A DNA stretch of 57,382 nt from Kiritimatiellia bacterium (GCA_031550185.1 JAVBOU010000008.1:1-57382), one strand, 5' to 3'; counted from the first letter of the stretch, positions 2,841 to 57,249 are shown. Numbers and translations are program-made. Notes: generated by a model from the sequence alone, not told the origin.

Positions 2841-2877
2841 TCTTGTGGCGTGGCAGAGGTTCTGCCACGCCACAAGA
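2841..2877. repeat. GC-rich palindromic element, copy 1
   Basis: CTTGTGGCGTGGCAGA-GGT-TCTGCCACGCCACAAG, a 16-17 bp perfect stem. It lies 12 nt after the stop of the 2890 gene and 73 nt before the pfp start. Confidence 0.9.
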
Positions 2878-2889
2878 AGGTTATTTGTT

Positions 2890-5523
2890 TTAGCGGATCA
2901 GAAAGAGTGAGCCGCTGTTTTTGCTGAGCCAGATTTCGGTGTTGTTCTTTACCTTGGCAATATGCCATTTTGCGTGAAGTTCGGGCGGAAGGAGGTAATC
3001 ACCGGTGATGTTGGAGGCGGTCAGCAGATGGCAACGCGTTATCTCCTCTGGGATGTCATCGAGCAAGGTCACGTTTACGGTGCCCACGGCGTTGAACGCG
3101 TTGTCCACAATCAACGGAGCAATGAGTGACGCGGCAAAGCCGGCCTCGTTATCCAACATGACGCTGTTTTTCACGTTGCCGCTGCCGCCAATGAAAGCCT
3201 GCGGGGCGACAGTGACCGCGCTGATGACGACGCCATTGGTCGTCAAAAGAAGGGTGCCTTCTTCGATGGTTGTGTCGCCGGTATAAGTGTTGACACCACC
3301 GAGCATCCAAATGCCGGTTCCTGTTTTCAGCAGCGATGTCGGATAAACGGTGGATTTGTCGATGCGGTTGGGAATGACGCCGAGCACCGCGTTGCCGAGC
3401 GTGTTGGTGCCGGCGAGGGTGAGGGTTTTGGCTCCGTTGACAGTGACGGTGAAATTGGATTCAAAAACAACCGCACCGGATCCAGACGCGTCGAGCGTTG
3501 CGCCGCCCGTGGTTCCGGCCAGGTTGATCACGCGGTCGGTAGATTCGCCGGAGCCGAGATAACGGAGCGTGCCGGTGGTGGTGCTACTACCGATCTCAAT
3601 TGTCCCGTTTGCGACAGTGACAGGGCGTCCAAGGCTGCTTGAACTTCGGGGATTGACGACACGATTCAAAACGTACGCCTCTAAAATGCCGTTGTAAATA
3701 TAGGTTTTCAAGGTGTACGTGCTTTCGTCGCCACGCAGTGTAAAAACGCCGGCTCCTGTTTTGGCAATGCCGCCGTTGTCCGCAATGATGCCGTCAAAGA
3801 TCGAGTTCGAATCCCGATGGCCGATGGTAAACACGCTGCTTCGAAGCAGGAACAGCGTGCCGCCGCCGAACATGGTGTTTACATGATACGCTCCGCTGTG
3901 CGTCTCAATACGCCCGTAGTTGTAGATGTCACCTTCCCGATCTCCATACGGCAACACGTTGCAATTGGCTCCCAAGTCAATGCGTCCGAACAAGTAAATG
4001 TCCCCGGTCACCGTATGGTCGGAGCCTGAGATACCGACGCTTGAGCCTGACGATCCGGTGACTGGAAGCTCTGTGGTCATCTGGTAAAAGACAATACCGC
4101 AATCGCCGCTTATACCCCTGGTGATAGTGCTTCCCTTGCCTCGCCACGACGCAATGACACCTTGCACGCCGGTGAAATCCAACGGCGCGTTGATGGACAT
4201 TGAGGCATTGCTACGTAGCATGACGAGGCCGCTTTTGACATGAAGTTTATTCGTGCTGGTGATGTTGGACACCGAGGCAAGATAGGCTGACATGATGGAG
4301 TTGACAACACCCTCTTCTGTGAATGTCACCGCTGTGCCCGACGGCATGTAGACATTTTCGACGTTTCCCAGCACAGGGCCATTGTAACCATTGGCATAAG
4401 TCCGAAATTCGGTGACGAGATCCAGTGGCCTGACGCCTTTTTCGGTGTCATAGGTGAGGACGAGCGAATTGCCGTCTGTATACATCCAGGGAATGATTTG
4501 TACGGACGGCGTTCCGGGTAGTCCGTTCGCGTCGCCAAACAGCTCCGGTGGATTGTCAATGAAGACATTGCCGACATTGGATGCAGGAGCGTTTCCAAGC
4601 ACCGCGTCATTTCCGCCAACTGCAATTCGCGTGGGCGAAAAATTTTGCCGGGTAATTTCACCAATGGAAAACACGGTTTCACGGTTTGCCTTCGGATAGA
4701 GCAGGAACGAGTTGATGCCGCCCTTTTTGTTTGTGTCGATGACCAGGCTCTCAATCCGGTTTGTGGAGTTTGCCGTCCCGTTGCCGCTCGCTCGCAGAAA
4801 AGCAGTGCGAAGGGCGATGGTGTCCGCGCGGACGGCGCCATTGCCGCGATCGGAGTTGAATTCAACGGAGGTGCGGTTGTCGATGGTTATTTCGGCGTTG
4901 GGTTGCGACATGTCGTTGCCATCAAAATAAAGTGTGCCGCCACCGGTGATCAGCAACGAGTCCATGTTTTGCATGGCGTTGCGGATTCGTATGGTACCGG
5001 TTTCAATGCTGAACGTACGCGGTACGCCACCCAAATCAAGATTCAACGATTGGTTTTCAGTACCCTGATTTCCAATCCAAAACGACCTGTTGACTTTGTT
5101 GGTGATGTTGCCATTCAGCGTTAGCGTCCGGCGCGCGCCACTGCCGCGCAGATAGATGTCACCCGACGCTGTCCCATGCTCAATGGTGATGCCATTCAGG
5201 AAACTCGTGTCCCTTGAGGTGTCAATATACTGCGCACCGCGGACAATCAAGCTTTGGCCCCACAAGCCGTTGATGACTCCGTCCGCCCAGTTGGAGAGAT
5301 CGTTCATGTCGTATGTGCCGGCGGCATCCCGTATCCAGCCGGAGGCAGGAGTGGTGCGCAAGGATGCGGTTGATGTCCAGACCGTCTGTTCGGCGGTTTG
5401 GACGACCGCGCGGACAACATAATCTTTTGAAGGGTCAAGACTGTGCAATGTATATGAAAACACCTTGGGTGACGCCTCGATATTTGACGCGGAAAGAACC
5501 GCGGAATATTCCCATGCGGCCAC
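2890..5523 (-). CDS. PATR beta-helix surface protein, C-terminal part of a gene split by an in-frame TAG at 5530-5532
   Basis: Open frame with PATR-type repeats (LLKTGTGIWMLGGVNTYTGDTTIEEGTLLL) and the conserved C-terminal module ending NNTEIWLSKNSGSLFLIR. It has no signal peptide or plausible native start of its own (tool start is a GTG 6 nt after the TAG). It is in the same frame as 5530..6618. Confidence 0.7.
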   Translation of the reverse strand: MAAWEYSAVLSASNIEASPKVFSYTLHSLDPSKDYVVRAVVQTAEQTVWTSTASLRTTPASGWIRDAAGTYDMNDLSNWADGVINGLWGQSLIVRGAQYIDTSRDTSFLNGITIEHGTASGDIYLRGSGARRTLTLNGNITNKVNRSFWIGNQGTENQSLNLDLGGVPRTFSIETGTIRIRNAMQNMDSLLITGGGTLYFDGNDMSQPNAEITIDNRTSVEFNSDRGNGAVRADTIALRTAFLRASGNGTANSTNRIESLVIDTNKKGGINSFLLYPKANRETVFSIGEITRQNFSPTRIAVGGNDAVLGNAPASNVGNVFIDNPPELFGDANGLPGTPSVQIIPWMYTDGNSLVLTYDTEKGVRPLDLVTEFRTYANGYNGPVLGNVENVYMPSGTAVTFTEEGVVNSIMSAYLASVSNITSTNKLHVKSGLVMLRSNASMSINAPLDFTGVQGVIASWRGKGSTITRGISGDCGIVFYQMTTELPVTGSSGSSVGISGSDHTVTGDIYLFGRIDLGANCNVLPYGDREGDIYNYGRIETHSGAYHVNTMFGGGTLFLLRSSVFTIGHRDSNSIFDGIIADNGGIAKTGAGVFTLRGDESTYTLKTYIYNGILEAYVLNRVVNPRSSSSLGRPVTVANGTIEIGSSTTTGTLRYLGSGESTDRVINLAGTTGGATLDASGSGAVVFESNFTVTVNGAKTLTLAGTNTLGNAVLGVIPNRIDKSTVYPTSLLKTGTGIWMLGGVNTYTGDTTIEEGTLLLTTNGVVISAVTVAPQAFIGGSGNVKNSVMLDNEAGFAASLIAPLIVDNAFNAVGTVNVTLLDDIPEEITRCHLLTASNITGDYLLPPELHAKWHIAKVKNNTEIWLSKNSGSLFLIR

Positions 5524-5529
5524 ATCTTC

Positions 5530-6642: not shown

Positions 6643-8196
6643 TTAGCGAACGCGTTCGCTGTCGAATTTTGCGCCGCGCAAGGCGGAGCGGACAAAGGAA
6701 CCCCAATAGGGCGTGGGCGTGAAATTCCAGTCTGAAATGACGCAGGGCGAGGCGTCGATGTGGAAGCTCCAGGCGCTCCAGTTGAGCTTGTATTTTTGGA
6801 TGAAGGCCAGCATGTCGGGCGCCCACTGGTAAGGGTCGACAATGACTTTTTCAAACTCCATCGCCTTGGGCTGGCAGCCGACTTCGCCGACAAAAATGGG
6901 ATGTTTTTCGGCGACGGCCAACACCTTGCCGGCCCAATCCGTCTTCCACGGGTAAATGTGCGTGGCGTACATGATGCCGTTGCCGCCTTTCTCCGTGAGC
7001 GAGAAGCCATTGGCCACGCCGCTCAAGTCATACGCCCAGTCGAGTCCGCCCGCGATGACGATGTTTTTCGCGCCGGTTGCACGGATGACCTCGAGCAATT
7101 TTTGCATGCCGATCGACGCGCCAAGCTCCTTGCCCTCGGTGGTTTCGGCAATGGCGCCGTCGCGTTTTTCACCCGCGAGCTTTCCGCCATCGCGCCACTC
7201 CTCCCACGAGATGTCGTACGGCTCGTTGATCATGTCGAACAGCACCGCGGGATGATTCGCGTAGCGCTTCGCCGCATCGCTCCAAAACGCCGCGTGCTCC
7301 TGCGTTGGCGCGCGGTATTCGTGCAAATCCAGGACGATGTAGCAACCGTGCTTCGCGGCGTACTCAATCATTTCGTCGACCAGTTTGCGGTACGCCTGCG
7401 CGCCGTCCGGCCCCTGCTTTGGATCGCGGCCAAACCAGAAGCGCGTTTTCACCGCGAAACGAATCACGTTCACATTCCAGTCCTGCAACGCCGCGGCGAA
7501 CGACTCGCGCAAGTGATCGCCCTCGTGCCACCACTCCAGGCTCGGAATGTTCACGCCCTGCAGCCACTCCTCGCGTCCGGCCTGGTCAACAATCCGGTTG
7601 CCCTTCACGACGAGCGTCGCCTCCGGTCCCAGCGGCTTCACGTCCGCGCGCACCGGATCGACGCCGGCGAGTGACACGTCGTCAATGTCAAACGTGCCGC
7701 TTGCCGTGTTGAAATGCGTGGGCATGAACTCCAGGCTCACTGCGTCCGCCGGAACCCCGAACTTGTGCGCGATCCAGCGCCAGTCCGACGTCCCCGTAAA
7801 ACCCACGGGTGGCGCACCGGTTTTTTTGCCGTCCTGGTCGATGAAGTTCATGATGATCCGCGCGTCGTTCCACTTCTCTTTGCCGTGCTGGACATTTTCA
7901 TAACGCGTGCGAAACTTCAATTCCAGATTCTCAAAACCCTTTGGCACGTCGACTTTCACGTAAAAGAAATTCACCATCTCGTCCGCGCCCCGCGACGTCA
8001 ACCGTAGAAAGTGATTGCCATTTTCCGCGGCATACTCCGCGTCGCCAGCCGGCCAATGCTTCGGCCAGTTGTTTTCAGATTCCTCAAAGTCTCCATTTTG
8101 AAAAATCGAAACCGGAATCGGAGTTGTCAGCGGAACCGCCGCGTGCAGAACAGTTGCGGTAAACGCGCAGGCAAAAAAAGTGTGTGCGTGCATCAT
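6643..8196 (-). CDS. secreted CBM4_9-like + GH5 glycoside hydrolase (cellulase superfamily)
   Basis: Start is the ATG at 8196, overlapping the upstream stop as ATGA. Signal peptide [19 protein letters not shown]. CBM-type opening [11 protein letters not shown]. GH5 motifs LDLHEY, MINEPY (acid/base Glu) and FVGEVGCQP (nucleophile Glu). Confidence 0.85.
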   Translation of the reverse strand: [517 protein letters not shown]

Positions 8197-11982: not shown

Positions 11983-12093
11983 GTGCATTCTCCTTGTGTG
12001 ATTGTGCAATGGCGCGAAGCGGTTATTTTGTGTTATGCGCTCCGCCGATGATAGTCAGCATTATACGTCGCATGTTGAGGATGTGCAATTTGA

Positions 12094-12130
12094 ATCCGTG
12101 GCGTGGCAGGAGTTCTGCCACGCCACGGAT
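12094..12130. repeat. GC-rich palindromic element, copy 2
   Basis: ATCCGTGGCGTGGCAG-GAGTT-CTGCCACGCCACGGAT, a 16-bp perfect stem, 6 nt after the stop of 12137..17062. Confidence 0.9.
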
Positions 12131-12136
12131 TGTTTA

Positions 12137-17100: not shown

Positions 17101-17128
17101 GCGTGGCAGAGGTCGGTCTCTGCCACGC
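17101..17128. repeat. GC-rich palindromic element, copy 3
   Basis: GCGTGGCAGAG-GTCGGT-CTCTGCCACGC. It lies 13 nt after the stop at 17142 and 38 nt before the start at 17062. Identical 28/28 to copy 4. Confidence 0.9.
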
Positions 17129-20578: not shown

Positions 20579-22789
20579 TCATGTGGGTTGTTGTGCGTGG
20601 CAGAGGTCGGTCTCTGCCACGCGGAGATTTTGTTGTTGGTGGTACAGATCGGTTTCCGCTGGTGTCAGGCGAAGGGTGGTGCGGCCGCCGTTGAGGAGCC
20701 GGCCTGTGTAAAGACCGCGCCATTCGCCAGGTGGCAGGGTGAGTTCGAGCTCGGCCGGCGTGTCGCCAAGTTGACGGATGAAAATAAAGTGGTCGCCCAG
20801 GCGTTCGACACGCGCGCGTCCGGAGAGACATTTGGGATTTCCGAATTTGGTGATGCCGGCTTCGGTCGCAGCGTCTTCAGTCACCGACATGAAGCCGTCC
20901 CAAAGGGCGTCGTCAACGGCACCGGGATTGGTGGCGAAATAAAACACGGACCCCTTGCCAATTTTTTTGCGCACCGCGCACGGTTCGTCGTATCCGGGGA
21001 AACGGGCGATTTCGGCGTCAAAGGTTCCGGCGATTCCGGCGTAGCGGTCAAAGCCGGCAATGCGGTTGCCGGCCGGCGTGACCATTGAAAACAACGGACG
21101 CGAAACGCGTTTGTTTTGAAGGGCTTTGCGCACGTCGTCGTTGGCGATGTCCGGCGCTGCGTCGGGTGCGTCGTCGTGTTGCGCGAGATGGATTGCGGCG
21201 CAGCTTTCGACTTCGCGAAAGCCCCAGCGTTCGGCCAATCCGGAGCCGGGAATGACGGCGGCATGGCGTCCGGTGTCGGGCGAATAACCCGCGAGGTGGG
21301 CTTCGCAAATCGCCACGCCGCCCGCATTGATCCATTCATTCAACGCGTCGGCTTCGGCGGCGTCGAGGTAATAGGGACTCGGCAGGATGAGCAAACGGAG
21401 GCCGTCCAGGCGGCGCGTTTTCAGCATGTCCGAATCAATGAAACGAAACGTGAAGTTGGCGGCATAAAGACGGTTCGCGTAGTTGGCGTAACTTTTGTGC
21501 AGCAATTCCATGCGGTCGATCGCGGCATGGAAGAGCTCGTTGCGGCGGCTTTTCCAGATGCCGATATCGGCGGCGGCGGGTTGCGCGCGCAGGAGTTCGT
21601 CGCGATGCGGCATGATCCTCGCGGTAAATTCGCGGATGCCGGCGGTGACGCGGCGCTCGCTCCCATCGGCGTTGATCACGCCCCAGGCCGGCGCCTCGCG
21701 TCCGAGCGACTCGGGGCGGAACTGCCAGAAGAGGAACCCTTTGACGCCCATGGCGAGTTGCGGCAGCAAATCGTTGCGCACGTCCTCGGCGTCAAGGTGG
21801 CGCGGGTGGAGGGACGTGTCGCCAAAGTTGATGTGGCTTTCGACGTTGTAACAAACCTTGCCGTTTGCGGCGGAAAGTGTCACGGGCGCCATCAACGTCC
21901 CGCCGGTCATGGTCGACGCGAAAACATCGCACTCCTGCGCCAGCGCGAAGTCATCCGAGCCACATGTGACGGGGTTCCACACGGCGAGGTCGTTGGGCAC
22001 GACATGGAGGTAGGCGGCGTGTTGCGGCGAGAACTCACGCGTCATGGCCAGGCGCCAGCGCGCCTCGCTGGTCATGGTGTCGATGAAAAACTCGCGCCAG
22101 TCGATGAAGTCGTTGAGGGTTGACGCCGCATACGGCAACTCGATGTTTTCCCAGTCGAGATAACAACGCCCCCACACGTCGTTGAGGCGTTCAATGGCGC
22201 CGTATTTGTGCTTCAGCCAGTTGTTGAATTTCTCACGACAGGACGGACAGTAACAGGCGAGCTTGTCCATGCGGACCGGTCCGCGTTGTGGAAAGCACAA
22301 CTCAGGTTCGTTCCACACGTCCCACATCGAAAGCGCGGGATGGCGGGCAAAATGTTTCAGCGCCGCCTCCATGAAACGTTGGCGAAAAGCCAGCGCGTCC
22401 GGATGGTTGTAACACGGGCCGGGATGACCGCCCAACTGGCGATGTCCCACGCCGTAAGGCTCGACAATCGTCCCGTCGGCCATGATCATTTTCGCGTCGG
22501 GGCATTGCGTGTAGAGCCAGAACGGCGCGACGTCAAAGATGGTGTTCAACGTCACCGCGAGATGGTTGCGCGCGGCGAGATCCATCAACGCGTCGAGGTC
22601 GTCAAAACAAAACTCGCCCGGACGCCGCTCGCTCCATCGCCATTGCACCCAAAATTTGACGTGATTGAAGCCAAGGTCACGCATGTGCCGCAGGTCGCGT
22701 TCCCAAAGCGAACGATCCGGCGTTGGCGCGCGGTAATATTGCGCGCCCCAAATGAACGGTGTGGTTGCTGCTGCTCGCGAATTCGTCAT
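20579..22789 (-). CDS. beta-galactosidase, GH42 family (no signal peptide)
   Basis: GAQYYRAPTPDRSLWERDLRHMRDLGFNHVKFWVQW and WDVWNEPE are present, together with the GH42 Zn-type Cys cluster CYCPSCREKF. The start is uncertain: ATG at 22789 or TTG at 22804. The last ~15 codons (RVAETDLCHAQQPT) are encoded by palindrome copy 4. Confidence 0.85.
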   Translation of the reverse strand: MTNSRAAATTPFIWGAQYYRAPTPDRSLWERDLRHMRDLGFNHVKFWVQWRWSERRPGEFCFDDLDALMDLAARNHLAVTLNTIFDVAPFWLYTQCPDAKMIMADGTIVEPYGVGHRQLGGHPGPCYNHPDALAFRQRFMEAALKHFARHPALSMWDVWNEPELCFPQRGPVRMDKLACYCPSCREKFNNWLKHKYGAIERLNDVWGRCYLDWENIELPYAASTLNDFIDWREFFIDTMTSEARWRLAMTREFSPQHAAYLHVVPNDLAVWNPVTCGSDDFALAQECDVFASTMTGGTLMAPVTLSAANGKVCYNVESHINFGDTSLHPRHLDAEDVRNDLLPQLAMGVKGFLFWQFRPESLGREAPAWGVINADGSERRVTAGIREFTARIMPHRDELLRAQPAAADIGIWKSRRNELFHAAIDRMELLHKSYANYANRLYAANFTFRFIDSDMLKTRRLDGLRLLILPSPYYLDAAEADALNEWINAGGVAICEAHLAGYSPDTGRHAAVIPGSGLAERWGFREVESCAAIHLAQHDDAPDAAPDIANDDVRKALQNKRVSRPLFSMVTPAGNRIAGFDRYAGIAGTFDAEIARFPGYDEPCAVRKKIGKGSVFYFATNPGAVDDALWDGFMSVTEDAATEAGITKFGNPKCLSGRARVERLGDHFIFIRQLGDTPAELELTLPPGEWRGLYTGRLLNGGRTTLRLTPAETDLYHQQQNLRVAETDLCHAQQPT
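20595..20622. repeat. GC-rich palindromic element, copy 4 (inside the 3' end of the GH42 ORF)
   Basis: GCGTGGCAGAG-GTCGGT-CTCTGCCACGC, 33 nt upstream of the start at 20561. Confidence 0.9.
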
Positions 22790-22861: not shown

Positions 22862-22889
22862 GCGTGGCAGAGCCCGGCCTCTGCCACGC
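22862..22889. repeat. GC-rich palindromic element, copy 5
   Basis: GCGTGGCAGAG-CCCGGC-CTCTGCCACGC, 7 nt after the stop at 22897. Confidence 0.9.
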
Positions 22890-25172: not shown

Positions 25173-26882
25173 TCAGCGCATTTTTTTCATTTCAAACTTT
25201 TCGCCCTTGAGCGCGCGCAGGACGGGTTCGCCCCAGTAAGGCGTGGGCGTGTAATCCCAGTCGAGCAGAAGGCACGGCGAAGAGCGCGGATGGAAGCACC
25301 ATGCGGTCCAGTTGAGGCGGTGCTTTTGGATGCAGCCGATCATGTCGGCGCCCCAGGTCAACGGGTCTTCGGTCTTTCCATTTTGCCACGGCATGGGTGT
25401 GGGCTGGCAACCGACTTCGCCAACCAGAATCGGGTACTTTTCGGCGGCGTCGAGGAAACGTTTTTGCCAGTTACCCTTCCACGGATAGACGTGTGTCTCG
25501 TACATGATGCCCTGGCCGTCCGGCGTGTCGTCAAGCGCGTAACCGTTGAGGACGCCGCCGAGATCATAGGCCCAGTCGAGTCCGCCGGCGGAGACGAGAT
25601 TGCGCGCGCCGGTTTTGCGGACGGTGTCAACGAGCGCCTGCATGCCGACGGAGCGGACAGCGTCCTGGCTCGCCTTGTTCTCCGCGGCGACGCCTTCTTT
25701 TTCTTCGCCTTTTTTGGCAACGTCGCCGCCGTTGCGCCACTCCTCCCAGGAGATGCCGTGGGGTTCGTTGAGCAGGCCGAAAATCACGCCGGGATGGTTG
25801 GCGTAACGCGTCGCGGCGTCCTGCCAGAAATCGGCGTGCGCGGAAGTGGCAGCGCGGTATTCATGAAGGTCGAGCACGAGATAGGCGTTGTTCTGCTGGC
25901 AAAAGGTTGCCACCTGGTCGACGAGTTCGCGATACTTCACGCCGCCATCCTTTTGATATTTGCCGTGACCAAACCAGAAGGGCGATTTGACCGCGAGGCG
26001 AATGACGTTGGCGTTCCAAACCTTGATCGCCTTCTCGACCGACTCCATGATGTGCTCGCCGCCTTCGGTCCATTCCATGGAGGCGACGGCGACGCCTTGC
26101 AACCAGACTTCCTGGCCGTCTTTCATGGAGACGAGGCGGTTGCCTTTCACCTTGAGCGGCGCGCTGGTGACGCCTTCGGGAAGAGGCATGGCCTTGCTGC
26201 GCACGAGTTGCGGCGGCGGTGGCACGGGCTTGGGTTCAGGCTTCGGAATGGCGCTGGCCTTGATGGGCGTGAGTACCATGTCGTCAATGTCCATCGTTCC
26301 TTTTTTCGCCTGGAAAAGGCTGGGCATGAACGCGAGATACGTCGCGCCGCCGGGGACGACGAAGTTAAGCTCTCGCGTCTGCCAGCCGTCGGACGTGCCC
26401 TTGAAATTCGGGTTCGGCGGCTTCGGGTTGACTGTCTGATGGCTGGCGTTTTTAAACTCCATCATCATCCGCGCGTCGTACCAGCTTTGCGCGCCGACTT
26501 CGACATCCTGCCAGCGCACGCGAAAGGTCATCTTGAGCGCCTCCGTGCCGTTCGGCACTTGCACCGGATGATAAATCATCACATGCTTGCCGGGCTCGGT
26601 GGAGGTGATGCGCAAAAAGCGGTTTCCGTCTTCAACCGGATAACTGATGCCGGCCTTTACCTCCGGCCATTGCGCGGCGGCGCCTTGTTCGCTAACCTTT
26701 TGAAAATCCCCGTTGGCGATCAAGTTTTCGTCCGCGGCGTGGCAGAGCCCCTGCCATGCCACGCAGACGGCGAGCATCAATGCAAATGCGGGGCGTTGTT
26801 TCAAGGTGTGTTCTGTTCGAGTCACTGGAATCTCCGGTTGGTTGTTGGTTTGGCATGAGACGTTTTCCATTGCGGTTCCCAT
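25173..26882 (-). CDS. secreted CBM4_9-like + GH5 glycoside hydrolase
   Basis: GH5 motifs LDLHEY, LLNEPHG and [9 protein letters not shown]. CBM opening [10 protein letters not shown]. Signal peptide ...[22 protein letters not shown]. The start is uncertain: ATG at 26882, or TTG at 26804 giving MKQRPAFAL... Confidence 0.82.
   Translation of the reverse strand: [569 protein letters not shown]
26738..26764. repeat. GC-rich palindromic element, copy 6 (inside GH5 signal-peptide codons)
   Basis: GCGTGGCA-GAGCCCCTGCCA-TGCCACGC. On the minus strand it encodes VAWQGLCHA. Confidence 0.85.
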
Positions 26883-26892
26883 GCCAGGTGGT

Positions 26893-29585: not shown

Positions 29586-31247
29586 TTATCGCATTTTCTT
29601 CATCTCAAACTGTTCGCCCTTGAGGGCGCGCAGGACAGGTTCGCCCCAGTAGGGCGTGGGGGTGTAATCCCAGTCAAGCAGGAGGTTGGGCGTGGCGGTG
29701 GGATGAAACGCAAACGCGGTGTAGTGGAGGCGGTGTTTTTGCACGCAACCGAGCATGTCCGGCGCCCAGGTGTCGGGCATTTCATGGCGCTCCGACGGAA
29801 TGAAGGACATGCGCGTCGGCCAGCAGCCGAACTCGCCGAGAAAAACCGGAACCTTCTCCGCGGCGTCAAGGAAATGGTGTTGCCACCGGTCTTTCCACAC
29901 GTAGACGTGCGCCTCATACATGATGCCCTGGCCGTCCGGCGTGTCGGTGAGCGCGTGGCCGTTGAGGACGCCGGTCAGGTCGTAGGCCCAGTCAAGACCG
30001 CCCGCAGAAAGCAGGTTGCGCGCGCCAGTTTTGCGGATGGTGTCGACAAGGTATTGCATGCCGACGGATTCGACTGCGCCGAGGTCGTGGAGGTTTTCGG
30101 CAAAGACGCCCTCCTTTTCGCGTAATTTTTCCGCGATGTCGCCACCGTTTCGCCATTCCTCCCAGGTGATGCCGTGAGGCTCGTTGAAGAGGTCGAAGAT
30201 GACGCCGGGGTGATTCGCATAACGCGTGGCAGCGTCCTTCCAAAAGAGAGCGTTCATGCCGGTCGGCGCGCGATACTCGTGAAGGTCGATGACGACGTAA
30301 ACGCCTTGTTGCTGGCAGACGGCGACGACCTGGTCGAAGATGGCGCGGTAGTGGCGGCCCTCGTCGTTTTGCCACGGGCCGGCGCCAAACCAGAACGACG
30401 TCAGCGCGCGGATGCGGATGACGTTGACGCCCCAGACGCGGATGGCATGATCAACGGACTTGTCGATGTTTTCGCCCGTCGCGGTCCATTCGAGCGAGGG
30501 AATGTCCACGCCCTGCAACCACACCTCCTCGCCCGCTTTTATTTGCGCGGGCTTGCCCCAAATTCGCGCCGCGCCGTCCCGCATCGCGACCAGGCGGTTG
30601 CCCTGCACCTTGAGAGGCGGAATGACCAGGCCTTCCGGAACGGGCATGGATTCGCTCCACATGTAGCGTTCGGACTGCACGGTTTTCCAGCCCTCGGCGT
30701 CGAATGCGGTGATGACCCAGTCATCGAGATCCATCACGCCGCTTTTCGCCTGGAAGAGGCTCGGCATGAGCGCGAGCAACGCCGTGCCTTCGGGAATCGC
30801 GAACCTCATCTCACGCGTCTGCCAGTCGCCGCTGCCTTTGAAATTCGGCGATTCCGGCGGCGTCGCGCCCGCGAGGTCGTGATGGTTGGCGTCCTTGAAC
30901 ATCATCATGATCCGCGCGTCAAACCAGTCGTTCACGCCGTGCTCAACATCCTTCCATCGCACGCGGAACGACATCTTCACACCCGCTGTTCCCTTGGGAG
31001 TCGCGACCGCGTGGTACGCCATCACATGCTTTCCCGGCTCCGTCTGCGTGATGCGCAGGAAGCGGTTGCCGTCCTCAACCGGATAACTGACGCCGTTCTT
31101 CGCCTCCGGCCATTGGCCCATTTCGCCGGCCTCCTGGAAATCGCCGTTGGCGACCAGGTTGTCCGTGGCGTGGCAAAGCCCCTGCCACGCCACACAGGCG
31201 GCGAAAACCAGTGCGAATGAGAGGTGAAGATGGTGAGTTCTTTTCAC
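29586..31247 (-). CDS. secreted CBM4_9-like + GH5 glycoside hydrolase
   Basis: GH5 motifs IDLHEY, LFNEPHG and [9 protein letters not shown]. CBM opening [10 protein letters not shown]. The likely start is the GTG at 31247, overlapping the GH28 stop as GTGA and giving [27 protein letters not shown]. The tracked ATG at 31328 would overlap GH28 by 85 nt. Confidence 0.8.
   Translation of the reverse strand: [553 protein letters not shown]
31165..31193. repeat. GC-rich palindromic element, copy 7 (inside GH5 signal-peptide codons)
   Basis: GTGGCGTGGCA-AAGCCCC-TGCCACGCCAC, an 11-bp perfect stem. It encodes VAWQGLCHA. Confidence 0.88.
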
Positions 31248-35400: not shown

Positions 35401-35428
35401 GCGTGGCAGAGGTGGGGCTCTGCCACAC
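35401..35428. repeat. GC-rich palindromic element, copy 8
   Basis: GCGTGGCAGAG-GTGGGG-CTCTGCCACAC (one arm mismatch), 31 nt upstream of the start at 35369. Confidence 0.85.
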
Positions 35429-38268: not shown

Positions 38269-38296
38269 GCGTGGCAGAGGTGGGGCTCTGCCACGC
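38269..38296. repeat. GC-rich palindromic element, copy 9
   Basis: GCGTGGCAGAG-GTGGGG-CTCTGCCACGC, 9 nt after the GH5 stop at 38306. It has the same loop as copy 8. Confidence 0.9.
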
Positions 38297-38305: not shown

Positions 38306-39958
38306 TCAACGCATTGTCTTCATCTCAAACTTTTCGCCCTTGAGGGTGCGCATGACCGGTTCGCCCCAGTAGGGCGTGGGGGTGTAGTTCCAGTCGGAAA
38401 TCAGGCACGGCGAGGATTTGGGGTGGAAGCACCAGGCGGTCCAGTTGAGGCGGTATTTCTGGATGCAGCCGAGCATGTCGGGCGCCCAGGTGTCGGGCAT
38501 TTCGTGATTTTCGGGCGGGATGAAGGACATGCGTTCGGGTTGGCAGCCGACTTCGCCGACGAGGATGGGATATTTGGCCGCGGCGTCGAGGAAGGATTTT
38601 TGCCAGTTGCTTTTCCAGACGTACACGTGGGTTTCGTACATAATGCCCTGGCCGTCCTTGGTGTCGGTGAGTGCGTAGCCGTTCAGGATGCCGCTCAAAT
38701 CGTACGCCCAGTCGAGTCCGCCCGCGGAAAGGAGATTTTTGGCGCCGGTCTTGCGGACCGTGTCGACGAGGTATTGCATGCCGACGGATTCGACGGCGCC
38801 GAGGTTCTCCTGGTTTTCCGCAATGACGCCGGCCTTGCCGCGCGCTTCGTCGAGGTTGCCGCCGTTGCGCCACTCCTCCCAGGAGATGCCGTGGGGTTCG
38901 TTGAGCAAACCGAAGATGACGCCGGGATGGTTGTTGTAACGCGTGGCGACGTCCTTCCAAAAGTGGGCGTGCTGGCCGTTCGCGGCGCGGTACTCGTGCA
39001 GGTCGATGACGAGGTAAACGCCGTTTTGCTGGCAGGTCGCGGCGACTTTGTCGACGAGCTCGCGGTAAGCTTTGCCCTTGTCGTTTTGCCACGGGCCGGT
39101 GCCAAACCAGAAGGGCGATTTCACGGCGAGGCGGATGACGTTCACGCCCCACACCTTGATGCACTGGTCGACGGATTCGAGAATGTGTTCGCCCGCGGCG
39201 GTCCATTCCATGGAGGCCAGGGCAACGCCCTGCAACCAGACTTCCTTGCCATCCTTCGTTGAAACGAGGCGGTTGCCCTGGACTTTCAGCGGGACGGTTT
39301 TTGTGTCCTGCGGAACGGGCAACGTGGTACTCCAAACGTAGCCCGCGTATTCCGCGGCGGCCTTGGCCTGCGCGGCGGCGAGCGTCTCGGCCTTCCACTC
39401 CGCGGCGTTGTAACCGGTGATGACCCAGTCGTCGAGATCCAGCGTGCCGCTCTTTGCCTGGAAGAGGCTCGGCATCAGCGCGAGGAAGACGGCACCATCC
39501 GGAACCGCGAACATCAATTCGCGCGTTTGCCAGCCGTCGGAGGTGCCGCGGAAATTCGGCGCGCCCGGCCCGCCCTTGACCGTCGTGTGGTTGGCGTCCT
39601 TGAACTCCATCATGATGCGCGCGTCAAACCAGTTTTGCGCGCCGACCGCGACATCCTGCCAGCGCGCGCGGAAGGTCATCTTGACGCCTGCCACGCCCTG
39701 CACATTCACAGGATGGTAGATCATCACATGCTTGCCCGGCTCGAACTGCGTGATGCGCAAAAAGCGGTTGCCGTCCTCGACCGGATAGCTGATGCCGTCC
39801 TTGGGTTCCTGCCATGCCTCGGCGCCGTTGCTGGCGGTGGTTTTTTGGAAGTCGCCGTTGGCGAGCAGGTTTTTTTCCGCGGCGTGGCAGAGGCTGTGCC
39901 ATGCCACGCAGGCGGCGAGCGCGAGGGCGAAGCGAAGTGGTTTTCCGGGTTTGTGCAT
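38306..39958 (-). CDS. secreted CBM4_9-like + GH5 glycoside hydrolase
   Basis: Start set to the ATG at 39958 ([26 protein letters not shown] signal peptide). CBM opening [10 protein letters not shown]. GH5 motifs IDLHEY, LLNEPHG and LVGEVGCQP. Confidence 0.85.
   Translation of the reverse strand: [550 protein letters not shown]
39882..39909. repeat. GC-rich palindromic element, copy 10 (inside GH5 signal-peptide codons)
   Basis: GCGTGGCA-GAGGCTGTGCCA-TGCCACGC. It encodes VAWHSLCHA. Confidence 0.85.
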
Positions 39959-43925: not shown

Positions 43926-43949
43926 GTGGCAAAGGTACCCCTCTGCCAC
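43926..43949. repeat. GC-rich palindromic element, copy 11 (degenerate)
   Basis: GTGGCAAAGG-TACC-CCTCTGCCAC, one mismatch. It lies 10 nt after the stop at 43960 and 33 nt before the start at 43892. Confidence 0.7.
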
Positions 43950-46076: not shown

Positions 46077-46186
46077 GCTTCCAAAATACCACGACAATCC
46101 GTTTCCTGTCAACCTATGAATACCGCACACCGGCATTAGAGAAGTTGTGTTATAAGTTTGGTAAATCGTCGCGTATAGAACGCTCC

Positions 46187-46470
46187 TTCAGAACCCGGCG
46201 GCCAACAAATTGAACTGATCGTCGATTTTCGCCAGCCGGTTGCGGTAAATCCCTGCCACCTCGGCGTACTGCTTCATCTCACCGATGCTGTGTTCAACCA
46301 CCACGCGTAAATTCGACAAAAGGGTGTTTTAGTGGCGTTGCGAGTCATCAAGACGCTTTGATCGGCAGGCATACCCTGGGATGTCGCGCACCTTGGAAAC
46401 CACGGTCTGGCAGAATGGTCATCGTCGCCGGGATGTTCGGCCATAATCTGACGTTGATCCCACACGCGGT
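46187..46470 (-). mobile_element. remnant of an IS5-like/DDE_Tnp_4-type transposase gene (C-terminal third only, frame-disrupted)
   Basis: My minus-strand translation gives ...ILPDRGFQGARHPRVCLPIKAS* and then, in another frame, LRVVVEHSIGEMKQYAEVAGIYRNRLAKIDDQFNLLAAGF*. These resemble the L-x-D-[KR]-G-[YF]-x-G and VE..IG..K......YRNR C-terminal blocks of DDE_Tnp_4/IS5-type transposases. No intact N-terminus or inverted repeats were found. Confidence 0.5.
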
Positions 46471-46531
46471 TATCATGCCGCGCGCCGCGCTTGCTCGGAA
46501 CCGGCGATGTTGCGGATGGAGACGCGAGGCG

Positions 46532-48268: not shown

Positions 48269-48483
48269 GTCATTCCTTTTCCGGGGGCGGTTCAAACTTC
48301 AGCGTCGATCGGTTTCTGCGCCCGGCGCGATGTCGAAGTCGGTGAAAAACTCCGGACAAATGATGCGCGGCGTGGCGTAAAACGTTCGGCCCAGTAAAAA
48401 CGCTCGTCGCCTCCTGGCGTGTGCGAAAGCATAAGCAAGCAGGCAATTTGCATGGTGTTGCACAAAAAGTCTTTCATAATATG

Positions 48484-48499
48484 GCTTTCACGTGTTAGC
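48484..48499 (+). promoter_or_regulatory. CACGTG-centred 16-mer GCTTTCACGTGTTAGC, copy A (candidate operator/TSS motif)
   Basis: Exact 16-nt repeat of 50613-50628, immediately preceded by the AT-rich hexamer TAATAT. Confidence 0.45.
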
Positions 48500-48727
48500 T
48501 TCAACATCAAAATGCGTGGCGCGCGAAACGCGCAACATCTTCTTTTGAGAGCGTTGGCATCCGCCAGCTGCATGCCACTAAAAAGGGTCTCTGACTTTGA
48601 GCTCGACGCAACGGGAAACCCGACATTCAAAATCGGGCCGGATCGCTCGTTGTCTGAAGAGGAAAAAGGATTCACGTTTCGTTGCCGCCGCGTCCCTGTT
48701 GATACATTGGGACTCAAATAAAACGTC

Positions 48728-48756
48728 GTGGCGTGGCAGAGGCTCTGCCACGCCAC
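48728..48756. repeat. GC-rich palindromic element, copy 12
   Basis: GTGGCGTGGCAGAG-G-CTCTGCCACGCCAC, 14-bp arms, in the divergent intergenic region between GH127-like (-) and GH29 (+). Confidence 0.9.
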
Positions 48757-48771: not shown

Positions 48772-48817
48772 TTTCACAAATCGAAAGAAACCTCTATCAT
48801 GTGGCGCACGTGTTATC
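48772..48817 (+). promoter_or_regulatory. candidate sigma70-like promoter of the GH29 gene plus CACGTGTTATC motif
   Basis: TTTCAC-N17-TATCAT, followed 6 nt later by CACGTGTTATC (48807-48817). The start codon is at 48853. Confidence 0.35.
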
Positions 48818-50535: not shown

Positions 50536-50583
50536 CCCGTTTGATGTCGGAATTTTCAACCGTTTCCCGCCGGTTTTCACCGC

Positions 50584-50628
50584 TTGACCGGTTGTGACGG
50601 GTCTGATATATTGCTTTCACGTGTTAGC
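50584..50628 (+). promoter_or_regulatory. candidate sigma70-like promoter (TTGACC-N17-TATATT) plus 16-mer GCTTTCACGTGTTAGC, copy B
   Basis: Near-consensus -35/-10 with a 17-nt spacer. The conserved 16-mer starts directly after the -10, and the start codon at 50687 has an AAGGAGA SD. Confidence 0.45.
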
Positions 50629-50686
50629 ATGGTGTGTTTTTTCAAAAACTTGCCGCTAAAAAACAGCGGCGCCAAGGAGAAAAACC

Positions 50687-53560: not shown

Positions 53561-53582
53561 CGAACGAAAGGAAAACCCGCCC

Positions 53583-56108
53583 GTGAAAAAAAATTGGCTT
53601 CCACTGACACTTCTCGCCACGCTGACGTTTCCGCTCATCGCGCAAACCTTCCGGCCGCCAACAGAATGGGGCGCCGCGCAAGGCAATCCGTTCAAGGAAA
53701 GCGGGCAGCCGCGCTGGCGGTTCGACCAGATCCGGCCCGCGAATCCGGAGGACGCTGACGCGTATGTGGTGATGAAATGGGACGAGGGCCGCAAGGCGTG
53801 GCACAACGTGCCGGGAAGCCAGGGCGGGCAGCCGGACGCGAAGATGGAAAACGGCAACGCGCGCATCGAAGTGCGCGCGCGCGGCGGCGGTGACTCGGAG
53901 TTTGTCAAAGGCGCGGCGCTGGTCTTCATTGCGCCGCAGGACGGCATGTACCGGTTCGCGGTGGACGCGATCGACATTCACCGTTGGGAAGGCGGCACGA
54001 CGACGTTTCTCATGGTGCTCAAACGTTTTCAAAAAAATGACGGCTGGAGCGTTGAGCCGGTTTTCAAGACCGCGTTGGAACCGAAAAACGGAAACACGCT
54101 GGAGCCGGTTGAGATGTCGCTCAAAAAAGGCGACGAGCTCGCCGTGGTGCCGTGGCACGACGGACACTGGTCCGGCGCGACCGTGACGTTTGTCAAACCT
54201 TCGGTCACGCGCACCGGCAACTTCACCGCGGTAAAATCCGCGCTTCCAGCCGCGTTGCCGTTTGAGCTGTTTGCGAAGACCACCAGCGCGGGTCGCCCGC
54301 TTCCCGCGCAAAGCGGCGTGGCCAATGTCCGCGATTACGGCGCGGCGGGTGATGGCAAAACCGATGACACGGCGGCGATTCAAAAGGCGATCACGGACAA
54401 TCGCAACCGTGGCGGACGCGTCGTTTATTTCCCCGCCGGCACGTATCTCGTGAGCGACAAGCTGACGTATGGCGACAACCTCGAGCTTGCGAAATTTCTC
54501 ACGCTGCAAGGCCAGGGCCGCGACCTCACCACGATCCGGTTGCGCGACAACTGCCCCGACTTCGACCAGCGCAAGGCGGTCGTGAGCCTGTTCGAAGGCC
54601 CGACCACCGGCATGGCGTTCAACAACAGCGTCTACGATCTGACCATCGACGTTGGCAGCGGCAACCCCGGCGCGGTCGCGCTGGAATGGATGCAGAACAA
54701 CACCGGTTCCGGCGAGCGTCTGCGTCTGCGCGCGCCTGCGGGAAGCGGCAGCGTTGGCTTTGATCTGACGCGCCACGAACCCGGCCCCGGCCTGATCCGC
54801 GACGTCATCATCGAGGGCTTCGATTATGGCGTGTTCTCCGTCCAGACGTGCTTCAGCATGACCTTTGAAAACATCCTCTTCAAGGGGCAGCGCAAGGCCG
54901 CGATCCGCAACAACACGCAGACGCTTTTTCTCCGTCGCATTCGCAGCGAAAACAACTGCCCCGCGATCATTTTCGCCGACCAGACGCCTTTTGGCGGCGT
55001 CTGCGTGATCGACTCGGAATTCATCGGCACCGGCCCCGAAGCCGCGAAAACCGCCGCGATTGTCTGCGGTCAGCCGTGGATTTTCACGCGCAACATCCGC
55101 CAGCAAGGTTACGCGAAACTGATTGATCCCGGCCTCGATGGTGCCGAAAAAAAAGGCGACTGGTGGGGCAGTGTCGGCGCGCAGGTCTCCGCCTTTCCCG
55201 GCGTCAAGCCGGCGATGTTGAACCTGCCTGTCAAGGAGTCGCCGGACATTCCGTGGGACGCGCCGGACAAATGGGCGGTTGTAAATCCGCAACGCCTCGA
55301 CGAAACTTACGACGACAGCGCCGTGATCCAGGAGGCGCTCGACTGGGCCGTGGCGAACGGCAAGACCTCACTCCTCGTTCCCGGTGGCCGCAGAGTGCTT
55401 TACGGCAGCACGATCAACGTGCCCGCAAACATCCGCCGCATTTATGGTTGCGACGCGATGTCGGGCCTCACGCCGGACATGGCGAAAAGCCGCGCGGCCG
55501 TGTGGCGTGTCACAGCCGGCGCCACGCCACTGGTCATCGAGCGCTTTTACAACGAGGATTTCGCGCGCGCGTTGCCCGTTCGAAACTGCGTCTGGATCGA
55601 GCACGCCTCACAGCGTCCGCTTCTGATGGCGCACGGCTCCTCCGCGTGCGATCCGTACCGCGGCACGCCCGCAAGCCGCAACGCCGACGTCTTTGTCGAC
55701 GACTGGGTCGGCCAATTTCAATTCAACGGGCAGAACGTCTGGATGCGCCAGTTCAACCCCGAGTCCAACGGCGAAATGCTTGTGAACGACGGCGGCACGG
55801 TCTGGATTTTCGGCAGCAAAACAGAGAGCGAAACCGGCACCTGGATCGTCACGCGCAATGGCGGCAAAACCGAACTCCTCGGCGGCTACAATTACCCAAG
55901 CTGGCGGCACCCGAAAAGTCCGGCGCCCAAGCCGCTTTTTATGGTTGAAAACGGCTCCTTTTCCGCTGTCGTCAAGGAGCAGGTCTTCCACGGATACATG
56001 GCCTATCCCGTCACGTTGCGCCACACACGCGGCGGCGTCACGAAAGACATCGGACGCGAGTGCGTCACCGGCGCATGGATCGGCAACGTGCTGGCGCTTC
56101 CGCAATGA
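53583..56108 (+). CDS. secreted right-handed beta-helix glycosidase/lyase-fold protein (Pectate_lyase_3-type domain)
   Basis: GTG start after AAAGGAAAACCCGCCC. Signal peptide (M)KKNWLPLTLLATLTFPLIAQ. The motif NVRDYGAAGDGKTDDTAAIQKAI followed by VVYFPAGTYLV is the hallmark N-terminus of Pectate_lyase_3/GH55/GH28-like beta-helix domains. Confidence 0.7.
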   Translation: MKKNWLPLTLLATLTFPLIAQTFRPPTEWGAAQGNPFKESGQPRWRFDQIRPANPEDADAYVVMKWDEGRKAWHNVPGSQGGQPDAKMENGNARIEVRARGGGDSEFVKGAALVFIAPQDGMYRFAVDAIDIHRWEGGTTTFLMVLKRFQKNDGWSVEPVFKTALEPKNGNTLEPVEMSLKKGDELAVVPWHDGHWSGATVTFVKPSVTRTGNFTAVKSALPAALPFELFAKTTSAGRPLPAQSGVANVRDYGAAGDGKTDDTAAIQKAITDNRNRGGRVVYFPAGTYLVSDKLTYGDNLELAKFLTLQGQGRDLTTIRLRDNCPDFDQRKAVVSLFEGPTTGMAFNNSVYDLTIDVGSGNPGAVALEWMQNNTGSGERLRLRAPAGSGSVGFDLTRHEPGPGLIRDVIIEGFDYGVFSVQTCFSMTFENILFKGQRKAAIRNNTQTLFLRRIRSENNCPAIIFADQTPFGGVCVIDSEFIGTGPEAAKTAAIVCGQPWIFTRNIRQQGYAKLIDPGLDGAEKKGDWWGSVGAQVSAFPGVKPAMLNLPVKESPDIPWDAPDKWAVVNPQRLDETYDDSAVIQEALDWAVANGKTSLLVPGGRRVLYGSTINVPANIRRIYGCDAMSGLTPDMAKSRAAVWRVTAGATPLVIERFYNEDFARALPVRNCVWIEHASQRPLLMAHGSSACDPYRGTPASRNADVFVDDWVGQFQFNGQNVWMRQFNPESNGEMLVNDGGTVWIFGSKTESETGTWIVTRNGGKTELLGGYNYPSWRHPKSPAPKPLFMVENGSFSAVVKEQVFHGYMAYPVTLRHTRGGVTKDIGRECVTGAWIGNVLALPQ

Positions 56109-56196
56109 ACACGCGTTTGTTTTCGTTATGGAAGGCCACGTCAACTCGACACGCCGCTTTTTCCATTTCACTGACACGCTAACTCCAACCCCACAC

Positions 56197-57180
56197 ATGA
56201 TGAACACTTTCACCAACCCGCTTCTTCCCGAAGGCCCTGATCCCTTCGCCACGTTCCACGACGGTTTTTATTACGTCATGGTCACGGAGCAAGACAAGCT
56301 CCGCATTCGCCGCACGCGCGACGTCACCGACCTGGCCAACGCCGAAAACCGCATCATCGGCACCGCGCCGTTTTCCGACGCCTGCGCCACGTCCATCTGG
56401 GCGCCGGAAATTCATCGCGTCAACGGTCGCTGGTACGTTTATTTCACCGGCACCATGCTCGACCCGGCCGACCCGAGCGGCTCCGACGTGAAGCGCCGCA
56501 TCTTTGTCATGGAATGCGACGGCGACGACGTCATCCATGACGCGTGGCACTTCCGCGGCCCGGTCAAACTTCCCGCCGATCGCTACGCCATCGACGCCAC
56601 GATTCTCCACGACCACGGCGCGACCTACATGATCTGGAGCAGCAAGCTCGACTACGACGGCGGCTGGTGGCAGCACATCATGATCGCGCGCATGGTCTCG
56701 CCTTTCGCGCTGGAGGATCGCGAGGTCATTCTTTCGCGTCCTGAATTTGAATGGGAGCGCCACCAGCAACCCACCAACGAAGGCCCGCAAATCTTCCGGC
56801 ACGGCAACGACATCTTTGTCGCTTACAGCGGCAGCGCGTTCTGGAGTCCTGAGTATGCGATCGGTTTCCTCCAAACCAAAAGCGGCGTGGATTTGCTTGA
56901 TCCCCAAAACTGGTTTAAGCATCCCGCGCCCTTTTTCAAGCAGTCGCCGGAGAACAGCGTCTACGGTTGTGGTCACAACAGTTTTGTCCCTTCCCCCGAT
57001 GGTGTGGAAATGTGGAACCTCTACCACGCCCGCAAACTTCCCGGCATGCCGCCCAACGATCCGCGATCCCCGCGAATCCAGTCGCTCACGTTCGACGCCA
57101 AAACCGGTCTTCCCGTTCTTGGCATTCCGACGGCAACCAGCGAAAAACTCCGCAAGCCCTCCGGCACCCCGGACTGCTGA
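56197..57180 (+). CDS. GH43 family glycoside hydrolase (arabinofuranosidase/arabinanase-like), no signal peptide
   Basis: Start trimmed to the ATG at 56197 (MMNTFTNPLLPEGPDPFATFHDGFYYV). GH43 catalytic blocks PDPF, WAPEIHRVNGRWYVYF, AIDATILHDHG and NEGPQIFRHGNDIFVAYSGS. Confidence 0.85.
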   Translation: MMNTFTNPLLPEGPDPFATFHDGFYYVMVTEQDKLRIRRTRDVTDLANAENRIIGTAPFSDACATSIWAPEIHRVNGRWYVYFTGTMLDPADPSGSDVKRRIFVMECDGDDVIHDAWHFRGPVKLPADRYAIDATILHDHGATYMIWSSKLDYDGGWWQHIMIARMVSPFALEDREVILSRPEFEWERHQQPTNEGPQIFRHGNDIFVAYSGSAFWSPEYAIGFLQTKSGVDLLDPQNWFKHPAPFFKQSPENSVYGCGHNSFVPSPDGVEMWNLYHARKLPGMPPNDPRSPRIQSLTFDAKTGLPVLGIPTATSEKLRKPSGTPDC

Positions 57181-57220
57181 TTTTTTTTCCACCCACGTTG
57201 ATGGCGCCCGGGGGCCGTTG

Positions 57221-57249
57221 GTGGCGGGGCAAAACCTCTGCCACGCCAC
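57221..57249 (+). terminator. degenerate palindromic element, copy 13, followed by a T-tract (candidate GH43 terminator)
   Basis: GTGGCGGGGCAAAA-C-CTCTGCCACGCCAC (imperfect arms), followed by GGCGTTTTTCG, 40 nt after the GH43 stop. Confidence 0.5.

Follow-up and report, generated by a model that had tools for sequence, protein, structure and literature searches.

What is a single GC-rich palindrome doing at 13 places within and between the genes of one glycan-degradation locus? The question is raised by a contig of a Kiritimatiellia bacterium (GCA_031550185.1 JAVBOU010000008.1:1-57382), the whole of which, 57,382 nt, is referred to here as the window. An original prediction, made from the sequence, had listed 13 hairpin copies and offered four roles for them: a repetitive extragenic palindromic (REP)-like element, an intercistronic hairpin that stabilises or processes mRNA, a terminator without a U-tract, or a palindromic binding site that co-regulates the whole locus. 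All 13 copies were found in the sequence at the positions given for them. We favour the first role and propose, at a probability of roughly 60%, that the family consists of short GC-rich palindromic repeats of the REP type which have been copied to many junctions of the glycan locus. This reading is favoured because the copies share one stem, are enriched in spacers, are present or absent at junctions in relatives and have occasionally been inserted in frame into genes. Of the remaining roles, the stabilising hairpin is a plausible one that we infer, termination is possible for four long copies, and the co-regulatory site was not upheld. Small palindromic repeats are a class already known, and the family described here is a new example of it and not a new kind of system.

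The copies are more alike and more frequent than chance allows. They are 24–39 bp long and share a stem of the form (GTGGC)GTGGCAGAG / CTCTGCCAC(GCCAC), with loops of 1–7 nt. The pattern GTGGCAGAG-N3-8-CTCTGCCAC has five matches in the window and none in 100 shuffled controls, in which dinucleotides were preserved; GCGTGGCA-N5-14-TGCCACGC matches ten times in the window and never in the shuffles, and the minimal pattern GTGGCA-N1-20-TGCCAC matches 16 times against 0.16 expected. Perfect hairpins whose stem measures 9 bp or more number 12 in the window, nine of which belong to the family. With up to one mismatch, the single arm GTGGCAGAG has 39 matches against 10.4 expected, about 24 of which are inside hairpins; the arms alone are not clearly enriched. 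Two forms can be told apart. The short form, represented by five copies which are all within operons, reads on the sense strand A4-5-YYTCY, GCGTGGCAGAG, a 6-nt loop and CTCTGCCACGC. The long form, represented by four intergenic copies and by the copy in the GH5 paralog B gene, reads GTGGCGTGGCAGA, a loop of 1–5 nt and TCTGCCACGCCAC, often with extra pairs that are specific to the copy. A MAFFT alignment failed to keep the two forms in structural register with each other.

The stems had been described as 10–17 bp long and almost pure G/C, which has to be corrected: perfect stems measure 9–18 bp, and the core arm GCGTGGCAGAG is G or C at 8 of 11 positions. The identities that had been pointed out between copies were reproduced. 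Copies 17101 and 20595 (the third and fourth; copies are named as in Table 1) are identical at 28/28 positions, and copies 35401 and 38269 (the eighth and ninth) share their loop and differ at one stem base. In addition, a direct comparison of copy 31165, which lies in the gene for GH5_B, with the intergenic copy 48728 gave a match at 26 of 29 bases. Folding, a check proposed along with the prediction, gave energies of −18.9 to −35 kcal/mol for the RNA copies; against shuffles, the z-scores of the intergenic copies are −3 to −9.7, with the exception of copy 57221 (z −1.55).

The family is also concentrated between genes. In the minus-strand block 7 of 11 copies fall in the 3.2% of the sequence that is non-coding, and the family is about 20-fold enriched in spacers. 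Six copies had been placed 6–13 nt after stop codons and four 31–38 nt before starts, and these distances are right for the ORFs (open reading frames) that were named. Positions are thus extragenic for the most part, as in REPs, with one copy only (48728) between divergent genes. The block has 21 junctions, about half of them with a copy. Where a copy is present the spacers are 67–162 nt long, the GH42 junction, with its copy in the tail of the ORF, being the exception; copy-free junctions have spacers of mostly no more than 71 nt, or their stop and start codons overlap. The genes that adjoin the copies are not homologous to one another, and the copies therefore did not arise through genes being duplicated along with their terminators.

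All four intergenic long copies stand at transcription-unit borders, and to judge from the promoter-like sequences beside them the long variants look like hairpin-plus-promoter junctions between transcription units. This raises the question of whether the hairpins are mainly terminators or attenuators without a U-tract, the long ones ending units and shielding the next promoter and the short ones lowering read-through. The border positions would fit, as would the sigma70-like promoters that follow copies 2841, 12094 and 48728, the very stable stems, the sense-strand T-run behind copy 57221 downstream of the final gene in the plus-strand operon, and the same layout in a hairpin outside the family that separates PFK from purB. 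However, hairpins of independent origin would not be expected to have one stem sequence or 28/28 identity; furthermore, eight copies have no sense-strand U-tract, four are inside ORFs, and the short copies 31–38 nt before starts leave no room for a promoter, and a full stop there would silence the downstream genes. Termination overlaps with the REP-like reading as a possible consequence of it and leaves the origin of the family unexplained, and we consider it unlikely to be the main explanation.

It had been stated that most copies lack a U-tract on the sense RNA, and indeed a T-run directly follows the stem only at copy 57221 (sense strand) and copy 48728 (minus strand). At the remaining copies there is a T-run on the antisense strand, starting 4–6 nt past the stem. 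The idea that the copies are antisense terminators was rejected: the T-runs opposite the genes arise because spacers read on the sense strand are as a rule rich in A and C (A 0.35, C 0.31, G 0.17, T 0.17 in the minus block, compared with 0.21, 0.31, 0.28 and 0.19 in coding sequence), and the PFK–purB hairpin, which is no member of the family, shows this pattern too. Located at 1487–1516, it has a perfect 12-bp stem (GGCCGCAATCGA-N6-TCGATTGCGGCC) and an A/C-rich lead-in and lacks a sense-strand T-run; in this host, genes may commonly be followed by hairpins that have no U-tract. Pairing of the CCUCC found 5′ of the short copies with the next GGAG, as an anti-Shine-Dalgarno, was also set aside, as the two are about 22 nt apart and form only 4 bp, and the idea is speculative.

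Four of the 13 copies (20595, 26738, 31165 and 39882) overlap coding sequence, which the original prediction had missed. Copy 20595 is within the last 19 codons of the GH42 gene and not after its stop codon; the resulting C-terminal tail, QQQNLRVAETDLCHAQQPT, is missing in nine homologs, which end at the native sequence end. A resemblance was noted at 20582–20659 (minus strand), where the native 3′ end of the GH42 gene, GCGGAAACCGATCTGTACCACCAACAACAA (AETDLYHQQQ), is similar to the loop, 3′ arm and flank of the copy that comes next, GCAGAGACCGACCTCTGCCACGCACAACAA (AETDLCHAQQ). The identity is 24/36, 1 of 200 shuffles scores as well, and the similarity may reflect a local duplication or a homology-guided insertion.

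The other three coding copies translate to CVAW(Q/H)(G/S)LCHA, which is the end of the signal peptide in the GH5 paralogs A, B and C and is directly followed by the conserved mature N-terminus NLxANGDF. The mature parts of these paralogs are 61–70% identical in pairwise comparisons. GH5_C is nearer to the foreign proteins P0242 (76%) and P0243 (75%) than to paralogs A and B, and a neighbour-joining tree joins it to P0242 (bootstrap support 75%). The signal peptides of P0242, P0243 and P0245 are unrelated to the hairpin-coded segment, and that of P0246 is a related version of it. The DNA of A, B and C is clearly more alike in a stretch of about 75 nt including the hairpin than upstream of the hairpin. 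Judged by these comparisons, the segment behaves as a member of the repeat family and not as an ordinary diverging signal peptide, and it has stayed close to the consensus of the family while the remainder of the genes diverged. It may have entered the three genes separately or have been homogenised within the genome; selection may also have kept an insertion of older date, because P0246 has a related version. The repeat has entered coding sequence in frame at least twice, in the GH42 tail and at the signal-peptide end of GH5 A, B and C. The suggestion of recent copying or gene conversion, made earlier for the identical and loop-sharing copies, gains support, and more strongly so through the copies in the GH5 signal peptides.

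Further traces of the palindrome were seen. Four weak GTGGCA..TGCCAC pairs lie in coding sequence (15072, 43111, 49880 and 52929), the last two within plus-strand genes. The pairs at 15072–15095 and 43111–43134 share their position (EASWQ....SAT/ATY) in the paralogous giant proteins of 1641 and 1303 aa. They may represent an old in-frame copy that was passed on to both. A degenerate TGGCATG...CATGCCA pair with a 7-bp stem and a 22-nt loop, at 26851–26886 in the PATR884/GH5_A spacer, may be a decayed copy of the family.

The presence of hairpins inside paralogs brings up the idea that the whole pattern is a by-product of base composition or of gene paralogy. Three copies are indeed at homologous positions in three paralogs, as are the weak pairs 15072 and 43111 in two others. 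However, the shuffles, with 0–0.16 matches against 10–16 observed, exclude the compositional artefact that had been named as one of the outcomes that would overturn the prediction; nine copies are intergenic and adjoin unrelated genes, and the nearest foreign GH5 orthologs are without the segment. The chance that composition or paralogy accounts for the pattern is therefore close to nil.

Orthologous junctions in relatives of the host differ in whether they have a copy. Synteny with the window is seen in the contig L131 (regulator 70%, GH5_E 83% and a protein like the 1303-aa one, big1303-like, 60% identical). Its spacer before the big1303-like gene, the junction at which the window has copy 43926, is without a hairpin, although the last leader bases before the start codon align. 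In L132, a hairpin of −31 kcal/mol (CGTGGCAAGG...CCTCCTGCCACG) is located directly past the stop of the GH5 gene whose product is P0243. L133 has an intergenic hairpin, GTGGCAAGTC-GTCAT-GACTTGCCAC, as well as a GH5 gene which contains the hairpin CGTGGCAAG-N8-CTTGCCACG and whose signal peptide ends in ..VAGAALCHA, coded by GTGGCAGGCGCCGCACTTTGCCAC. The hairpins of L132 and L133 have the same GTGGCA/TGCCAC base as those of the window and different inner stems. In the more distant L135, in which an orthologous regulator (58%) is followed by GH5 and PATR genes, there is no TGGCA..TGCCA pair in 17 kb. Homologs of GH5_C at 67–76% identity were found on short contigs. The GTGGCA/TGCCAC base is thus common to a few related organisms, with inner stems that vary between them and copies that come and go at given junctions.

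These comparisons bear on the proposal that a dimeric regulator of the whole locus uses the palindrome as its DNA operator; the GntR-HTH/LacI-type protein encoded in the locus (Table 1) would be the candidate. The arms are perfect inverted repeats, a regulator of this type is encoded in the one functional locus that contains or borders all copies, copy 48728 is in a divergent promoter region, and the centres of the long copies are about 59 bp upstream of the start points estimated from the −10 hexamers. On the other hand, an arm spacing that ranges from 1 to 7 nt is unfit for one dimer geometry, most copies are past stops inside operons with no room for a promoter, and the single arms are, as mentioned, not clearly enriched. 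The absence of a pair from L135 in spite of its orthologous regulator, and of a hairpin from the orthologous junction of L131, also speaks against an operator, and we regard this role as highly improbable. A sigma-54 promoter was considered as well and rejected: the short-loop variants fit TGGCA-N8-TGC, the variants with a 6-nt loop fail to do so, and copy 2841 is behind a stop codon.

Near-identical short copies are nearest neighbours, each pair flanking one gene: copies 20595 and 17101 are around LamG1139 (17142–20561), and copies 38269 and 35401 are around PATR925 (about 35532–38200). According to our own count of arrangements, identical short copies would be neighbours by chance with a probability of about 0.2; the two pairs fit local spread or local gene conversion. 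They could also be taken to mean that the hairpins are attC-like or att-like recombination sites bounding gene cassettes, with which the differences in gene order between the window and L131 at hairpin-bearing junctions would agree. attC sites are imperfect palindromes with RYYYAAC...GTTRRRY cores and extrahelical bases, and occur in cassette arrays with an intI gene nearby. However, the sequences here have neither a RYYYAAC/GTTRRRY core nor extrahelical bases, the window contains no integrase or recombinase, half of the junctions are without a copy, and the neighbour arrangement has the chance probability just given. Recombination sites of this kind are a very remote prospect. Two Logan contigs of run SRR23967709 end at copies of the family, L113 inside copy 12094 and L127 just before copy 57221, which fits a repeat but also assembly trouble at palindromes.

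Several points weigh against the REP-like reading. The family is known from 57 kb of one genome, with 13 copies and about five degenerate ones. Neither a RAYT nor another transposase was found in the window, and no protein of the window matches the Pfam Y1 transposase family. The outer pairs specific to single copies of the long form (five sequences) show no covariation distinguishable from that in shuffles. About 53 kb of housekeeping loci from three Kiritimatiellia relatives (L128–L130) are without such a family, and a strict metagenome scan gave 13 single-copy matches in unrelated contigs (42–70% GC) and no multi-copy relative. A stabilising or attenuating role, moreover, is one that we infer. 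Finally, the elements are fully symmetric and have no unpaired GTAG/CGTC tag of the kind that defines the two described REP superfamilies. The GTGG of the long variants is paired with a terminal CCAC, and the short variants are flanked on the sense strand by CCTCY (5′) and by A/C-rich sequence (3′). REPIN-type pairs are likewise not seen in the window: all copies are single, with nearest neighbours more than 1.5 kb apart. As stem-loops in the broad sense, palindromes of 20–40 bp, the copies conform to REPs in their length and in their perfect stems. Because there is no unpaired tag and there are no pairs, we file the family as REP-like in the broad sense only.

A loose scan of a 596-Gb genome collection with GCGTGGCA-N5-14-TGCCACGC gave at least 116 matches in 112 stretches, which look like chance or unrelated hairpins, and the core GCGTGGCAGAG is in none among the matches listed. 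Tandemly spaced copies of other GCGTGGCA..TGCCACGC hairpins were seen in two unrelated genomes, in an Akkermansia metagenome-assembled genome (MAG), 352 bp apart (L002, 2896–3275), and in a Chitinophagia MAG, every 120 bp (L082, 5334–5601).

According to the REP-like reading, copies would have been spread or homogenised by a copy mechanism, which could be either a REP/RAYT-like transposition of single-stranded hairpins or gene conversion. The copies stand within, or at the ends of, runs of genes read in one direction, whose spacers leave too little room for promoters. In the polycistronic mRNA the copies would fold into very stable hairpins 6–13 nt after stop codons, where they would block 3′-to-5′ exonucleases and/or pause or partly terminate transcription, and the operon RNA would thereby be divided into segments that differ in stability. 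By analogy with known hairpins, they probably act as decay barriers or pause sites, and stabilisation or processing of intercistronic mRNA would be their most plausible consequence. Of all copies, the four long ones at unit borders are the likeliest to be real terminators or insulators.

The base that is conserved in three organisms, and the signal-peptide cleavage region that is kept uniform across diverged paralogs, could also be understood differently. The hairpin could be a lineage-specific functional module of glycan loci in the Planctomycetes–Verrucomicrobia–Chlamydiae (PVC) group, its GTGGCA/TGCCAC base being bound by a dedicated protein and the signal peptide (..AWQGLCHA|A) having been co-opted. 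Such a protein could be a factor that binds RNA and acts in processing or antitermination; it could also be a recombinase which is specific to the hairpins and shuffles genes between them. We think a module of this kind improbable.

Table 1. Hairpin copies, promoter-like sites and the regulator gene in the window; each copy is named by the first position originally predicted for it
Name	Feature	Position	Strand	Description
2841	long-variant copy	2840..2878	minus	18-bp perfect stem, 3-nt loop, −34.7 kcal/mol; between PATR877 stop (2890) and PFK promoter-like site
12094	long-variant copy	12093..12131	minus	17-bp perfect stem, 5-nt loop, −35 kcal/mol; begins 6 nt past stop of 1641-aa gene, promoter-like site next
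17101	short-variant copy	17101..17128	minus	11-bp stem, sense-strand loop ACCGAC; between LamG1139 stop (17142) and 1641-aa gene start (17062)
20595	short-variant copy	20595..20622	minus	identical 28/28 to 17101; inside 3′ tail of GH42 ORF
22862	short-variant copy	22862..22889	minus	7 nt past stop of 734-aa gene, upstream of GH42
26738	in-frame copy	26737..26764	minus	codes for signal-peptide end CVAWQGLCHA of GH5 paralog A
31165	in-frame copy, long-variant form	31165..31193	minus	codes for signal-peptide end of GH5 paralog B
35401	short-variant copy	35401..35428	minus	loop CCCCAC (sense), one mismatch at stem base; 31 nt before PATR904 start
38269	short-variant copy	38269..38296	minus	loop CCCCAC (sense); 9 nt past stop of GH5 paralog C
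39882	in-frame copy	39882..39909	minus	codes for signal-peptide end CVAWHSLCHA of GH5 paralog C
43926	partial/degenerate copy	43926..43949	minus	10 nt past GH5_E stop, 33 nt before 1303-aa gene start
48728	long-variant copy	48728..48756		14-bp stem, 1-nt loop; divergent region between GH127 (minus) and fucosidase operon (plus)
57221	degenerate long-variant copy	57221..57249	plus	40 nt past GH43 stop (57180); GGCGTTTTTCG next on sense strand; only copy placed like a classical terminator
	sigma70-like promoter	2807-2835	minus	TTGCCA-17-TATAAT, 11/12; 5–6 nt past copy 2841
	sigma70-like promoter	12060-12087	minus	TGCACA-16-TATAAT, 10/12; 5–6 nt past copy 12094
	sigma70-like promoter	48773-48800	plus	TTCACA-16-TATCAT; 16 nt past copy 48728
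	GntR-HTH/LacI-type sensor/regulator gene	44970-46136	minus	

The window is a complete contig, with minus-strand genes at 102–48268 and plus-strand genes at 48853–57180. Its proteins are on record only from the contig itself and from the two Logan contigs mentioned above, which lie inside the window; no Logan entry was found for the purB product. The host is an uncultured PVC bacterium without a close sequenced relative, because its adenylosuccinate lyase is no more than 76% identical to any entry in the protein collection; the best named matches of this enzyme are Kiritimatiellota MAGs, and the phylum is probably Kiritimatiellota. On the minus strand, purB and PFK are followed by the glycan-degradation locus, which encodes five GH5 enzymes, GH42, GH28, GH127 and an oligogalacturonate-lyase-like protein as well as six autotransporter-repeat (PATR) proteins, the two very large proteins of 1641 and 1303 aa and the GntR-HTH/LacI-type regulator. 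The plus-strand genes are for a fucosidase, a Calx-beta protein, a rhamnogalacturonase-like protein and GH43. Stop and start codons overlap in three gene pairs, GH28/GH5_B (31244–31247), regulator/GH5_E (44970–44973) and lyase-like/GH5_D (8193–8196), which suggests translational coupling. In the short minus-strand spacers CA-rich leaders such as CCCCACCAACAACACAAACCC stand 5′ of Shine-Dalgarno sites. Spacers also contain hairpins outside the family, namely GTGCGGCGCATCGTCCT/AGAACCATACGCCGCAC at 35486–35522, upstream of copy 35401, and GGGAGCG...CGCTCCC at 32594–32654 in the PATR904/GH28 spacer. Two non-coding stretches are unusually long, one of 395 nt upstream of the regulator (46137–46531) and one of about 460 nt upstream of GH127 (48269–48727); a search of the whole window, these stretches included, gave no Rfam family match at the gathering threshold.

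If the REP-like reading is true, REP-type repeats extend to Kiritimatiellota-like PVC bacteria, for which we found no report of such repeats in the literature. The locus would add nothing to the understanding of how such repeats work; its interest lies mainly in the repeat-encoded signal-peptide end that three diverged GH5 paralogs have in common. Together with the GH42 tail, this cleavage-site half of a signal peptide is a clean example of a repeat that is read as protein. The hairpins are also natural candidates for the cut points at which the RNA of a giant glycan-utilisation operon could be divided into segments of different stability. On the practical side, such palindromes break short-read assemblies, as at the ends of the two Logan contigs, and can mislead gene callers on starts and stops.

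Several known systems invite comparison. The REPs of E. coli malEFG, between malE and malF, confer segmental stability on a polycistronic mRNA; E. coli REPs stabilise upstream RNA and can, near a stop codon, reduce translation of the preceding gene as well. Stem-loops at 3′ ends block 3′–5′ exonucleases (PMC7509114), and the same paper cites the puf operon of Rhodobacter capsulatus for an intercistronic hairpin that gives segmental mRNA stability. Our copies are like the puf and malE–malF hairpins in being very stable, in following a cistron directly within an operon and in having no U-tract; function has been shown experimentally in those systems, whereas here it is deduced from position and stability. 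With intrinsic terminators they have in common a GC-rich stem-loop past a stop and, in the case of copy 57221, a sense-strand T-run, and the long copies are at unit borders. They differ in that most are without a sense-strand U-tract, many are within operons and all have one shared stem. Rickettsia palindromic elements (RPE) are reportedly selfish palindromes inserted in frame into protein genes. Like these, copies of the present family and the hairpin CGTGGCAAG..CTTGCCACG in the L133 GH5 gene are in-frame palindromes that add a short peptide, here as the GH42 tail and the GH5 signal-peptide end. However, RPE are about 100–150 bp long and belong to another lineage, and the copies described here are mostly intergenic, with the coding ones at protein ends and not in surface loops.

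A further parallel comes from a survey of REPs, which also mentions RPE and in which Opitutus terrae, a member of the same superphylum, was rich in REPs of the GTAG superfamily (PMC3733652; Di Nocera et al. 2013). For the most part, REPs in that survey are placed downstream of ORFs, where the neighbouring genes are unidirectional or convergent; one O. terrae family has the end tag GTGG, and O. terrae has the highest number of in-frame intragenic REPs of the survey. The two sets are not the same in every respect: here the leading GTGG pairs with the trailing CCAC and leaves no unpaired tag, the stems measure 9–18 bp against mostly 6–9 bp, head-to-head or tail-to-tail dimers (REPIN-type pairs) are not seen, and none of the peptides listed as encoded by O. 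terrae REPs is related to AWQGLCHA. In both, however, many copies of a 20–40 bp palindrome form GC-rich stem-loops that are mostly intergenic and downstream of ORFs, sub-families have alternative complementary stem residues, and some copies are in frame, including at ORF ends; the GTGG tag of the O. terrae family is also the sequence with which the long variants in the window begin.

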